Sequence record: MT446388.1
Reading direction: 5' to 3' (one strand)
DNA from: Escherichia virus TH10
Length of the DNA stretch: 64,000 bases
A program made the position numbers and the translations under genes. Positions within the stretch are counted from its first letter, which is position 1, and the number at the start of each line of letters is the position of its first letter. The notes under the pieces are model-generated. The model did no database searches. It was not told the DNA's origin and was given only the letters and a program-made list of their open reading frames with translations. Positions 18,177-20,367 of the stretch are shown piece by piece.

Positions 18177-18248
18177 CAGAAGACCAATTACAGCAAACTT
18201 AATCTACTCATCTGAAAGTTAATCGGACAAAGAAGATATTTGGTCTGG
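18177..18248 (+). ncRNA. structured element 1 (CAGAAGACC..GGTCTGG helix)
   Basis: 5' CAGAAGACCAA pairs with 3' TTGGTCTGG; no ORF; one of 4 copies with compensatory changes. Confidence 0.4.
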
Positions 18249-18342: not shown

Positions 18343-18401
18343 CAGAAGACCGTATTCAGCAACAAAATACTTTTTGCGGATAAAAGAAAAACACGGTCTG
18401 G
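18343..18401 (+). ncRNA. structured element 2 (CAGAAGACC..GGTCTGG helix)
   Basis: 5' CAGAAGACCGT pairs with 3' ACGGTCTGG. Confidence 0.4.
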
Positions 18402-18667: not shown

Positions 18668-18728
18668 ATTTTGAGAGGGCTATTTAGCCCCTCCCTTAAA
18701 GAGTTCTTACGAGTATTCTTTAAAGGAG

Positions 18729-18804
18729 CAGAAGACCAAATACAGCAAGAACGTATGAAAATTTCAAGCCAATTTAATTTTGAAAAATTTAAAACTTGGT
18801 CTGG
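18729..18804 (+). ncRNA. structured element 3 (CAGAAGACC..GGTCTGG helix)
   Basis: 5' CAGAAGACCAA pairs with 3' TTGGTCTGG; interior A/T-rich. Confidence 0.4.
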
Positions 18805-18817
18805 CTCAACAAATTTA

Positions 18818-18948
18818 CAGAAGACCGTTTACAGCAAAACTTAAACAATCTATTTCTCGGTAAAGAAAAGGCGAAGGTTCGATTCCTTCACTCGGCAGAT
18901 GTCGAGTTGGTGTAATGGTAGCACTTAAGATGATAAACAACGGTCTGG
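18818..18948 (+). ncRNA. candidate Y-RNA-like RNA: permuted tRNA-like module closed by terminal helix
   Basis: order is helix strand (CAGAAGACCGTT), T-arm (GAAGG-TTCGATT-CCTTC), acceptor 3' strand ACTCGGC, 4-nt loop, acceptor 5' strand GTCGAGT (7 bp incl. one G-U), D-arm GTG-TAATGGTAG-CAC, helix strand (AACGGTCTGG). Confidence 0.5.
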
Positions 18949-19097
18949 TAATTGTCTTTGTAGATAAGTTATTAAGCTTACCTGTGAGTATGCGACCACA
19001 AAGGGTGAAAGGGTAAATTCTAGATTTAAACCCAAAAAGGCACATCGCTACAGACCTTAAGCAAGTCTGGGTAGCTTATCTACAAAGATAATTTAAT

Positions 19098-19329: not shown

Positions 19330-19405
19330 GCTGGTATAGTTAAGAAGGTTATAACACTCCCCTGATAAGGGAACATCGGTGGTTCGATTCCACCTACCAG
19401 TACCA
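19330..19405 (+). tRNA. tRNA-Ile (GAU)
   Basis: acceptor GCTGGTA/TACCAGT, loop ctGATaa, T-arm GGTGG-TTCGATT-CCACC, CCA. Confidence 0.75.
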
Positions 19406-19420
19406 ATTTCAATAAAGTTG

Positions 19421-19449
19421 TTGACATTGAGATGTGACAGCTTTATAGT
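19421..19449 (+). promoter_or_regulatory. sigma70-like promoter (TTGACA-17-TATAGT)
   Basis: consensus hexamers inside tRNA array; followed by about 200 nt ORF-free transcript before tRNA-Arg. Confidence 0.55.
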
Positions 19450-19652
19450 AACCTTAGTTTTCGTTGCGTAGCGTCTATTTTGCAAATTTAAAATAAATGC
19501 AAACGACAATGTTTTTCTGGCAGTAGCTTGATAGGCTAAACACCAGTGAGGTCTTCCAACCCCTCATCAAAGAATTTGGCGTACTAGCCCACGGTATGAT
19601 TAATAAGGTGGGCATCTTTAAGGGCTTTCTCAGAGAGTCTTTAAAGATTAAT

Positions 19653-19729
19653 GCACCCTTAGTTCAATTGGATAGAGCAACGGTCTTCTAAATCGTTAGT
19701 TACAGGTTCGAATCCTGTAGGGTGTGCCA
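19653..19729 (+). tRNA. tRNA-Arg (UCU)
   Basis: acceptor GCACCCT/AGGGTGT, D-arm AGTTCAATTGGATAGAGC, loop ctTCTaa, T-arm ACAGG-TTCGAAT-CCTGT, CCA. Confidence 0.8.
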
Positions 19730-19962: not shown

Positions 19963-20367
19963 ATGAAACTTTGTAGAAAATGTTCTCAAGAAAAGCCTTT
20001 AAGCTGCTTTCATAAAAGAGGTAATGGCTATCAGTCTGCTTGCAAAGATTGTAAAGCTAAGTACTCAGCAAAGAGATACAAAGAAGACCCTACTTATAAA
20101 GCAAAAAGAAAAGTTAGGGCAAAATATGACAAAAAGAGGAACAGAGAGTTCCTTAGTAGATATAAAAAGTTTTGCAAATGCAGAATATGTGGCGAATCTG
20201 AGCCAGTAGCTTTGGATTTTCATCACTTAGACCCTAAAGAGAAAGATTTTGCTCCAAGCAATCTTAAAACTTACTCTAGGGGCACTATTAAGCGTGAAGT
20301 CCGTAAGTGTGTTGTGCTTTGTTCAAACTGTCATAGGAAAGTTCATGCAGGACTGTTAAGTATTTAA
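19963..20367 (+). CDS. HNH endonuclease (134 aa)
   Basis: Cys-rich zinc-binding N-terminus; HNH motif DFHHLDP..N..VVLCSNCHRKVH; embedded in tRNA array. Confidence 0.8.
   Translation: MKLCRKCSQEKPLSCFHKRGNGYQSACKDCKAKYSAKRYKEDPTYKAKRKVRAKYDKKRNREFLSRYKKFCKCRICGESEPVALDFHHLDPKEKDFAPSNLKTYSRGTIKREVRKCVVLCSNCHRKVHAGLLSI

Follow-up and report, generated by a model that had tools for sequence, protein, structure and literature searches.

The genome of Escherichia virus TH10 (sequence record MT446388.1) was analysed over a stretch of 64,000 nucleotides (nt), termed here the window, in which 27 transfer RNA (tRNA) genes called by ARAGORN are arrayed on the + strand between 18008 and 23510. The phage type is Felixounavirus (Felix O1-like myovirus), and many Felixounavirus genomes from Escherichia and Salmonella phages share 97-99% identity with the 501 bases round the locus under study. 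Within the array, tRNA-Ile(GAT) (19330-19405, +) and tRNA-Arg(UCU) (TCT in the DNA; 19653-19729, +), both identified by ARAGORN, enclose a structured element at 19456-19652 on the + strand, the former being its upstream neighbour and the latter its 3' boundary. This element of about 197 nt is read here, with what we judge to be an even chance of being right, as the 'coding piece' of a phage transfer-messenger RNA (tmRNA), which lacks a tRNA-like domain, docks on the host tmRNA and substitutes its own tag. Its membership in an RNA family, its tmRNA-type message features, its covarying structure, its want of a tRNA-like domain and its complementarity to host tmRNA were all established in the analysis described below.

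A sigma-70-type promoter is located at 19421-19449 (+), where a -35 box TTGACA (19421-19426), a 17-nt spacer and a -10 box TATAGT (19444-19449) match the consensus at 11 of 12 positions, and the RNA start is predicted near A19456/G19457. This site is among the two best sigma-70 matches between 15000 and 25000, a region in which promoter-like sites occur at chance frequency (23 found against 22.3 expected from shuffles), so that the TTGACA-17-TATAGT motif alone is weak proof and derives its weight only from conservation. The promoter is kept at equal distance in SUSP1, Mordin and phiEa21-4, the last of which carries TAATCT as its -10 box, and a strong sigma-70 promoter lies 6-12 nt upstream of the conserved 5' motif of the RNA in 33 of 94 distinct upstream contexts from unrelated phages. 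The original prediction had described a consensus promoter ahead of a structured transcript of about 200 nt, and both parts were borne out, the conserved promoter being followed by 197 nt up to tRNA-Arg(UCU). Its further statement that the transcript contains no open reading frame (ORF) holds in practice but is not literally correct, as mechanical ORFs of 30-46 amino acids (aa) touch the region at 19379-19471 (+), 19596-19691 (+) and 19475-19615 (-), none of which is kept family-wide.

No terminator was found in the window between the RNA and tRNA-Arg, with which the RNA would be co-transcribed, and the 3' end of the RNA is probably generated by an RNase P cut at 19652/19653. Of the two identities proposed earlier, a tRNA precursor leader would thus be right in the topological sense only, while an independent small RNA is the one that stood, the element being conserved, structured and provided with its own promoter. 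Relatives are present in phages without a downstream tRNA (HK620 and BUCT610), which demonstrates that the RNA is more than the leader of a tRNA. It is hardly credible that the stretch is just a passive spacer or a functionless 5' leader within the tRNA-Arg precursor, or that it represents a small minus-strand protein gene. Such a reading would suit the direct abutment on tRNA-Arg without a terminator and the 46-aa minus-strand ORF, which is annotated as "hypothetical protein" in some GenBank records of relatives, but it is at odds with conservation across unrelated phage families, including phages without tRNAs, with compensatory base-pair changes and with strand-specific folding. The minus-strand gene was rejected as a candidate on the ground that its frame is not maintained family-wide. 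What the original prediction overlooked was a start-less frame of ten codons at 19499-19528 and the tmRNA-type identity of the RNA together with its antisense arm.

The tmRNA-type message domain and its family

The message domain opens with an A/U-rich single-stranded lead-in AAUUUAAAAUAAAU (19485-19498, +), in which U19494 and A19495 occupy positions -5 and -4 relative to the resume codon. In E. coli tmRNA, U85 and A86 set the reading frame, and their mutation shifts the frame (PMC2481249). U19494 and A19495 correspond to these two bases, and the frame-setting pair expected of a tmRNA is accordingly present in the phage RNA. The context AUAAnn followed by GCN is kept in alignment A2, which comprises 31 sequences not selected for ATAA and in which ATAA is invariant.

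The lead-in runs into a start-less tag frame (19499-19534, +) that reads GCA AAC GAC AAT GTT TTT CTG GCA GTA GCT and then TGA TAG, in the context AAAAUAAAU directly before GCA. The predicted tag is ANDNVFLAVA with two stops and no start codon, where the E. coli tmRNA tag is ANDENYALAA, and the start-less, stop-terminated frame typical of a tmRNA is hence found in the sequence. Across 132 elements with 49 distinct tag sequences (among the matches listed), the frame always consists of ten codons and a stop, often with a second in-frame stop, and follows the consensus A-N-[DE]-x-x-[YFVI]-L-[AMI]-[VA]-A. In codons 8-10, positions 1-2 are fixed or two-state and the third is free, codon 10 being GC[T/C/G] and codon 9 G[T/C]N. 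The tags of relatives include ANEEMYLAVA in HK620 and BUCT610, ANDNTFLAVA in Cba120, ANDAQFLAVA in phiEa21-4, ANDDVVLMAA in FSL SP-058 and Mulvp2, and ANDNQYLAVA in pJN2-26; in Mordin, the tag ANDNVFLAVA is read by ARAGORN too. An AUG frame overlapping the resume codon was also considered and rejected, its start being missing in Cba120 and pJN2-26 and its peptides unconserved.

Comparison with Rfam gave sub-threshold matches to tmRNA, permuted tmRNA, alpha-tmRNA and beta-tmRNA, centred on the tag, for the window and six relatives, and a permissive Rfam search returned sub-threshold tmRNA-type matches and noise only. The threshold of 47 bits was reached neither with RF00023 (16.2 bits, or 8.2 bits with the region alone) nor with RF04321 (28.7 bits by way of the T-arm of tRNA-Ile, or 17.4 bits with the region alone). 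The RF04321 consensus ...AUAAAUGCAAACGAUAAC, which is nearly equal to the window sequence, is the closest match in sequence to the lead-in and to the beginning of the tag.

The + strand of 19455-19652 folds at -57.7 kcal/mol with a z-score of -4.0 against dinucleotide shuffles (0 of 200 as good), while the minus strand gives z = -1.35. Downstream of the variable tag codons lie two conserved structures. The first is a helix-5-like stop-codon hairpin (19517-19546, +) with the UGA stop in its loop, which is built from an outer stem CUGG (19517-19520)/CCAG (19543-19546) and an inner stem UAGCU (19524-19528)/GGCUA (19534-19538). The second is an H-type pseudoknot (19547-19579, +) composed of stem 1, UGAGG (19547-19551)/CCUCA (19562-19566), and stem 2, CCAA (19556-19559, in the loop)/UUGG (19576-19579). 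All pairs of the hairpin and of both pseudoknot stems were verified base by base in the window. This layout, a hairpin holding the tag end and stop and then a pseudoknot, is that of helix 5 and pseudoknot 2 (PK2) of tmRNA. PK1, PK3 and PK4 were not found in the RNA, in which the helix-5-like hairpin and the one H-type pseudoknot are the covarying parts.

Across the structure, 92.6% of the cells of the 31-sequence alignment pair; column shuffles give 78.2%, with none of 500 equalling the alignment, sliding of the partners gives 31-58%, and two-sided changes occur in 8 of 13 pairs. Covariation is seen in the outer hairpin stem, where 17 sequences have GC and 14 have AU, with 100% pairing in all 31; compensatory double changes affect three of the five pairs of pseudoknot stem 1 and all four pairs of stem 2. 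An independent parse of 99 distinct cores showed the outer hairpin stem alternating between CUGG/CCAG and CUGA/UCAG, stem 1 taking the forms UGAGG/CCUCA, CAAGG/CCUUG, CGAGG/CCUCG, CAGGG/CCCUG and UCAGG/CCUGA, and stem 2 the forms CCGA/UCGG, CCAG/CUGG, CCAA/UUGG, CUCCA/UGGAG and GUCG/CGAC. The "several inverted repeats" noted in the original prediction were thereby confirmed, five helices having been checked base by base, and the comparison of structure with homologs that it had called for brought out compensatory changes in both the hairpin and the pseudoknot stems.

Downstream of the pseudoknot, a verified hairpin GCCCAC/GUGGGC (19587-19613, +) carries the conserved loop GGUAUGAUUAAUAAG (UGAUUAAUAA); in other lineages its stem is replaced by GGCGGGAG/CUCCCGCC, GCCCUGA/UCAGGGC or GCUUCCA/UGGAAGC, and the UGAUU loop motif is kept. 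The RNA ends with a 16-bp (base pair) terminal hairpin (19614-19648) plus UAAU, a segment (19614-19652, +) that is specific to Ounavirinae, abuts tRNA-Arg and is conserved with changes in phiEa21-4 and SUSP1. The terminal hairpin (AUCUUUAAGGGCUUUCUCAGAGAGUCUUUAAAGAU) resembles another hairpin at 18690-18726 after tRNA-Asp (CCCTTAAAGAGTTCTTACGAGTATTCTTTAAAGG), and its phiEa21-4 counterpart shares the GUUCUUACGAGAGUCUUU core; from their sequences, the two look like a repeated hairpin type of these tRNA arrays. At the other end of the RNA no conserved leader fold was detected, the RNAalifold results being weak and inconsistent within each leader class.

The element belongs to an unannotated RNA family that extends over hundreds of enterobacterial phages, prophages and phage-plasmids, including Felix O1-like phages, HK620, Kuttervirus, N4-like phages, siphoviruses and SSU5-like elements. 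With the 247-nt intergenic sequence as a blastn query, 625 phage records are matched, and 842 with a longer relative as query, and the family is almost never annotated in these records. The core (19490-19614) retains 70-82% identity in matches outside Ounavirinae, which comprise HK620 (P22-like), BUCT610 and swi2 (Klebsiella/Escherichia siphoviruses), Cba120 and many Salmonella phages (Kuttervirus/Ackermannviridae), FSL SP-058 (N4-like), pJN2-26 (SSU5-like phage-plasmid) and Mulvp2 (Enterobacter phage), and phiEa21-4 (Erwinia phage) is also among the core matches. The genomic setting differs between groups: in HK620 and E. coli prophages, the element occupies the part of the late leader that separates Q/pR' from the holin gene, and in Cba120, FSL SP-058, phiEa21-4 and the phage-plasmids it adjoins tRNA genes. 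A 461-nt HK620 query matches 411 of 5426 complete E. coli genomes (~8%), at 215 chromosomal and 208 plasmid places, with some of these matches covering only the other modules of the query; the two places examined are a prophage Q-S late leader and a plasmid of ~110 kb. A pattern scan of IMG/VR returned at least 120 matches; both scan patterns forced ATAA before the tag and left codons 8-10 and the stop free. A second scan without the 5' motif recovered essentially identical loci, and the exact upstream GTTTTCG is missing in only three of the 130 tag-bearing elements listed, one of which is a true tmRNA.

The lambdoid and siphovirus relatives exhibit a further type of repeat beside the element. 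Long-stem modules of the form CACACAACAGGTAAGAGCATT ... AGTGCTCTTTCCGTTGTGGTG flank it in HK620 (L001, 2390-2455 and 2620-2760) and BUCT610 (L002, 2620-2760 and from 2858 onward), and occur in L006, L016 and L032 as well. These unannotated modules enclose variable inserts, some with T-arm-like hairpins (GGTTCGAATCC), and may serve as stems for processing or represent another RNA family of the late leader.

Absence of a tRNA-like domain and ancestry

No tmRNA was called by ARAGORN in the window, the Felix O1 locus or 130 other loci. The predicted transcripts start 0-12 nt before the conserved 5' motif GUUUUCG, and the RNA under study 0-2 nt before it, which implies an RNA without a 5' acceptor strand, and a partner strand for this motif (CGAAAAC) accompanied by a T-arm or CCA was not consistently present near the element in the 132 loci. 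T-arm-like hairpins downstream of the element in Cba120 and Mulvp2 were evaluated as a hidden tRNA-like domain and discarded, as they are not common to the family. In HK620 and BUCT610, the 5-kb stretch round the element contains no tRNA-like gene.

These results bear on the alternative that the locus encodes a complete phage tmRNA (ssrA) of the two-piece or permuted kind, the tRNA-like domain of which would be an element at 18866-18960, some 600 nt upstream. This permuted tRNA-like element of the window displays a T-arm GAAGGTTCGATTCCTTC, an acceptor-like stem ACTCGGC/GTCGAGT closed by a 2-8-nt loop, U8-G9 and a D-arm GTGT-AATGGTA-GCAC, and is enclosed by AGACCGTT/AACGGTCT. Its acceptor-like stem covaries in Mordin (CCCTTC/GAAGGG) and SUSP1; CCA follows the stem only in Mordin, and G3-U70 is missing. 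In Mordin, an ARAGORN 'tmRNA*' call (69-818, 750 nt) fuses the tag with the tRNA-like element lying ~600 nt before it, genome announcements credit Felix O1 and Moogle with ssrA and state that Mushroom lacks it, and true two-piece tmRNAs do exist on viral contigs, all of which would be in keeping with a complete tmRNA. We nevertheless regard this alternative as quite improbable. The Mordin call swallows three tRNA genes and the promoter, and no such call is made in the window or the Felix O1 locus; the closing loop, the lack of G3-U70 and the restriction of CCA to Mordin do not befit an acceptor stem; and the RNA itself is devoid of a 5' acceptor strand, while most members (HK620, BUCT610 and others) have no tRNA-like partner. 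The upstream acceptor piece by which a two-piece tmRNA is recognized (T-arm, 3' acceptor strand and CCA) was not encountered in the window. The element is in fact present in Mushroom, tmRNA goes unmentioned in the genome paper of Felix O1, and the 'ssrA' statements for Felix O1 and Moogle probably stem from the fusion artefact of ARAGORN. A search for pairing between the RNA and the upstream tRNA-like region disclosed only hairpin-hairpin similarity, and the idea was dropped.

The upstream element invites description in its own right. Its topology recalls what we take to be that of the tRNA-like domain of bacterial Y RNAs. It falls in the fourth of four copies of a spacer module between the tRNA genes (18177-18248, 18343-18401, 18729-18804 and 18818-18948), which has the form CAGAAGACC...CAGCAA...GGTCTGG with complementary ends (AGACC/GGTCT) and may be a small structured RNA repeat or a processing element. 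The same array accommodates a 134-aa ORF (19963-20367, +) with CxxC...HH...CxxCH motifs, for which Pfam gave no match at E<=1e-3; HNH endonucleases are annotated at equivalent places in Felix O1.

A genuine two-piece (permuted) tmRNA was recovered on the 78.8-kb viral contig IMGVR_UViG_3300010354_000061 (L256; 361-726, - strand). It scores 141 bits with RF04321, for which it served as a positive control, and 124 bits with RF01850, and possesses the acceptor stem GGGCCUG/CAGGUCC, G3-U70, ACCA and the tag ANEDTYLMAA after AUAAGU before GCC. With this related tag and the same context before it, L256 represents the nearest complete relative of the family's message domain, from which it follows most plausibly that the family descends from such a coding piece. 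On the same comparison, the acceptor strand, D-loop, P2 and PK1 segment were most plausibly replaced by, or remodelled into, an arm directed against the host, and the D-loop motif of tmRNA, GGUUUCGAC, may be the source of GUUUUCG.

Complementarity of the 5' arm to host tmRNA

The first 30 nt of the region form a 5' antisense arm UAGUUUUCGUUGCGUAGCGUCUAUUUUGCA (19455-19484, +), which includes the family-invariant GUUUUCG (19457-19463) and is complementary to nt 77-106 of E. coli tmRNA, the ssrA sequence of which was verified against 5426 genomes. The target covers the 3' edge of PK1, the A-rich linker, U85/A86, the resume codon at G90 and tag codons 1-6, and the tmRNA region 79-107 is known to be single-stranded. 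At the 5' end, UAGUUUUCGU (19455-19464) matches ACGAAAACUA (ssrA 97-106) perfectly over 10 nt, so that the 5' motif complements tag codons 3-6 without a mismatch; further on, GCGUCUAUUUU (19471-19481) forms 10 of 11 possible pairs with ssrA 81-91, covering U85, A86 and the resume codon G90-C91.

The duplex of the window (19455-19484 with host 77-106) was computed at -27.3 kcal/mol, against -13.4 kcal/mol (standard deviation, sd, 3.2) for shuffled targets. For 75 distinct leaders against ssrA 74-120, the mean is -28.9 kcal/mol, whereas shuffled leaders give -14.0 kcal/mol (sd 3.7). Shuffled or reversed targets give -12 to -20 kcal/mol. The leaders pair with their own message domain at -14.0 and with those of other members at -14.3 kcal/mol, the host duplex being better in 75 of 75 cases; a fold of the leader onto its own resume codon, as suggested by RNAfold, was accordingly rejected, being family-wide no better than pairing with others' domains or shuffles. 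A conserved seed beyond chance and beyond self-pairing, as befits an anti-tmRNA base-pairing RNA, was thus obtained by computation. Six other Enterobacterales tmRNAs score like that of E. coli, and the target AAUAGUCGCAAACGACGAAAACUAC is identical in Enterobacter, Pantoea, Franconibacter and Atlantibacter, while 114 other gamma- and beta-proteobacteria, in which the target differs, are 5-9 kcal/mol weaker. Duplex prediction with the RNA taken at whole length against ssrA yielded nothing informative.

The longest Watson-Crick run between the RNA and ssrA nearly always joins the 5' motif to ssrA 96-108 over 8-12 nt, and the leader classes extend it on different sides. There are four such classes (~41, 51, 57 and 60 nt), each of which achieves 22-26 bp with the host by a different arrangement; class M, for instance, pairs through UAGUUUUCGU (host 97-106), GCGAC (87-91) and UUUGCGG (75-81). 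Variation in the columns predicted to pair is about half as frequent as in the unpaired ones, and pairing survives in 11 of 26 variants. The message domain of the phage differs from that of the host at the very bases read by the arm (AAU in place of GUC ahead of the resume codon, and AAUGUUUU in place of GAAAACUA), whereby self-sequestration is avoided. In addition, most members carry in the hairpin loop (19593-19607 in the window) the motif UGAUUAA, which is perfectly complementary to E. coli ssrA 236-242; it is absent in phiEa21-4, the pJN2-26 type and the L036 type, and as it is not universal, the support for a possible second contact with host tmRNA is weak.

It might be supposed that the RNA acts independently of host tmRNA, as a sponge for S1, SmpB or a nuclease or as a substrate mimic that absorbs a host RNase, the complementarity being a by-product of descent. 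The clear descent of the family from a tmRNA coding piece and the likeness of its 5' motif to the tmRNA D-loop motif would accord with such a role, which we nonetheless deem improbable. Genuine tmRNA 5' regions (E. coli nt 8-48 and the L256 coding piece) pair with the target at only -13 to -18 kcal/mol, that is, at background level, and the complementarity of the arm is hence not an inherited property of tmRNA. The four leader classes, moreover, keep their 22-26 bp by different arrangements, and the arm matches host-specific GUCGC and GAAAACUA, which are missing from the phage's own message domain.

A proposed template in trans, its main rival and its implications

In the reading that we favour, the RNA would be transcribed from the promoter at 19421-19449 and released from tRNA-Arg by RNase P at 19652/19653. 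Its arm would then anneal to the single-stranded message domain of the host tmRNA, by which the host resume codon and tag template would be masked, and the phage resume codon would be placed ~15 nt from the PK1-side end of the duplex, the corresponding host spacing being 11-12 nt. Host Ala-tmRNA-SmpB would still enter stalled ribosomes, and translation would resume on the phage template, the host tmRNA thereby being used as the 'acceptor piece' of a two-piece tmRNA. Resumption on the phage template is inferred from the maintenance of a coding-type tag frame together with the frame-setting bases. Rescued proteins would end in (A)ANDNVFLAVA rather than (A)ANDENYALAA. The strongest form of this proposal, in which all rescued chains receive a phage tag of the ANDNVFLAVA type in place of the host degradation tag, as host Ala-tmRNA-SmpB resumes on the phage template, is put forward more tentatively than the reading as a whole and may well turn out to be wrong. 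At their N-terminus the phage tags retain A-N-D/E, and position 6 still holds an aromatic residue, but they end in LAVA or LMAA where the host tag ends in ALAA. We guess that the LAVA/LMAA end changes recognition by ClpXP/SspB; in view of the known ClpX and SspB determinants, the phage tag might, speculatively, keep adaptor binding and alter protease recognition.

The main rival is an anti-tmRNA inhibitor or decoy, in which the arm blocks tagging or triggers cleavage by a double-strand RNase, and the untranslated body is a scaffold, a decoy for message-domain-binding proteins or an ancestral remnant. The complementarity data fit this account equally well; a duplex of 22-26 bp over the resume codon is expected to stop loading of the host template, and no mechanism is known that brings a template without a tRNA-like domain to the ribosome. 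It leaves unexplained, however, the ten-codon stop-terminated frame with its codon-like third positions and hydrophobic C-terminus, the retention of the frame-setting U-5/A-4, and a message domain that has diverged just enough to escape self-pairing and yet is tmRNA-like. On balance, the inhibitor appears unlikely, although it is the most probable of the alternatives considered.

Several points weigh against the template model itself. The distance between duplex and resume codon is class-dependent, ~15 nt in some and ~29 nt in others; a duplex of 24 bp over the message domain might do no more than block tmRNA, and the loading onto a ribosome of a template held by base pairing alone is doubtful. 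The transcript ends, the RNA-RNA pairing and the translation of the tag are all deduced from sequence. The Salmonella tmRNA tag ANDETYALAA entails one mismatch in the 10-nt seed (-23.0 against -27.3 kcal/mol), and Salmonella phages keep GUUUUCG unchanged, so that no co-evolution between host and phage is seen. Felix O1 and JohannRWettstein have an insertion of ~90 nt, absent from the window, between the promoter and the RNA body, and many prophage elements are preceded by a stem instead of a promoter, from which it follows that the arm is not always at the primary 5' end. The resemblance of GUUUUCG to the tmRNA D-loop motif means that its conservation could be partly ancestral. Finally, the family members are related, so that the 75 leaders are not independent and the statistics overstate independence. 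With respect to the insertion itself, it lies between the -10 box and GUUUUCG at ~2375-2465 in L254 (Felix O1) and 655-745 in L009 (JohannRWettstein), recurs in many relatives, and its end ...TACATATACTGAATA may supply a new -10 box.

Compared with bacterial tmRNA (SsrA, RF00023), the phage RNA shares the A-rich lead-in with U-5/A-4, the start-less resume codon GCA, a ten-codon tag running from A-N-D to a small hydrophobic end, the double stop, the helix-5-like stop hairpin and the pseudoknot. It differs in being only ~197 nt long and sub-threshold in Rfam and in lacking the acceptor stem, T-arm, CCA, PK1, PK3 and PK4, and we know of no tmRNA with a 5' arm antisense to host tmRNA. The coding piece of two-piece tmRNAs (RF04321, RF01850; L256) is similar in its lead-in and tag start, its tag type and the principle of a coding RNA base-paired to a separate acceptor RNA. 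In a true coding piece, the 5' acceptor strand and D-loop come first, and helices P1 and P2 join it to an acceptor piece of its own; the phage RNA has, in place of these parts, an arm complementary to the message domain of the one-piece host tmRNA.

Among phages, mycobacteriophage DS6A carries a tmRNA fragment reduced to the tRNA-like domain, which was proposed to interfere with host trans-translation (Hudson et al. 2014, PMC4131195), and in the tmRNA census of that year, mycobacteriophages and Bacillus phage G were the only phages recorded with ssrA, apart from the DS6A fragment (PMC4131195). The present family is the mirror image of DS6A, as it keeps the message without the tRNA-like domain where DS6A keeps the tRNA-like domain without the message; in both cases, the phage carries one half of a tmRNA only. 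AgvB and AsxR, the anti-small-RNA transcripts of enterohaemorrhagic E. coli (EHEC) prophages, are likewise encoded in late-leader or accessory regions and direct a short conserved seed against an abundant host RNA. They have no tmRNA-like body, and their targets are Hfq-dependent small RNAs rather than tmRNA; an intrinsic terminator or Hfq-type 3' end was not evident in the phage RNA. Full-text literature searches for a phage tmRNA without a tRNA-like domain or for an anti-tmRNA RNA yielded neither, but only one-line ARAGORN-based mentions of 'ssrA' in Felix O1-like phages.

A tmRNA coding piece is a known kind of molecule, and the mechanism proposed for it here would be new if confirmed. tmRNA-SmpB is the universal ribosome-rescue system of bacteria, and to our knowledge its template has always been regarded as lying within the same molecule or within a dedicated two-piece pair. 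If the proposal is true, a template-only phage RNA addressed to host tmRNA would represent a new viral takeover of translation quality control and the first re-programming of trans-translation in trans, widespread in enterobacterial phages, prophages and phage-plasmids, and the fate of truncated proteins during infection as well as the load on ClpXP/SspB could change. The element would also explain the sporadic 'ssrA' calls made by ARAGORN in Felix O1-like phages, and it is present, unannotated, in Felix O1 and Kuttervirus group phages for therapy and biocontrol. That certain phages, lambda-P22 hybrids and Mu among them, depend on SsrA has long been known but is poorly explained, and the model of a phage RNA acting on host tmRNA may bear on this dependence.

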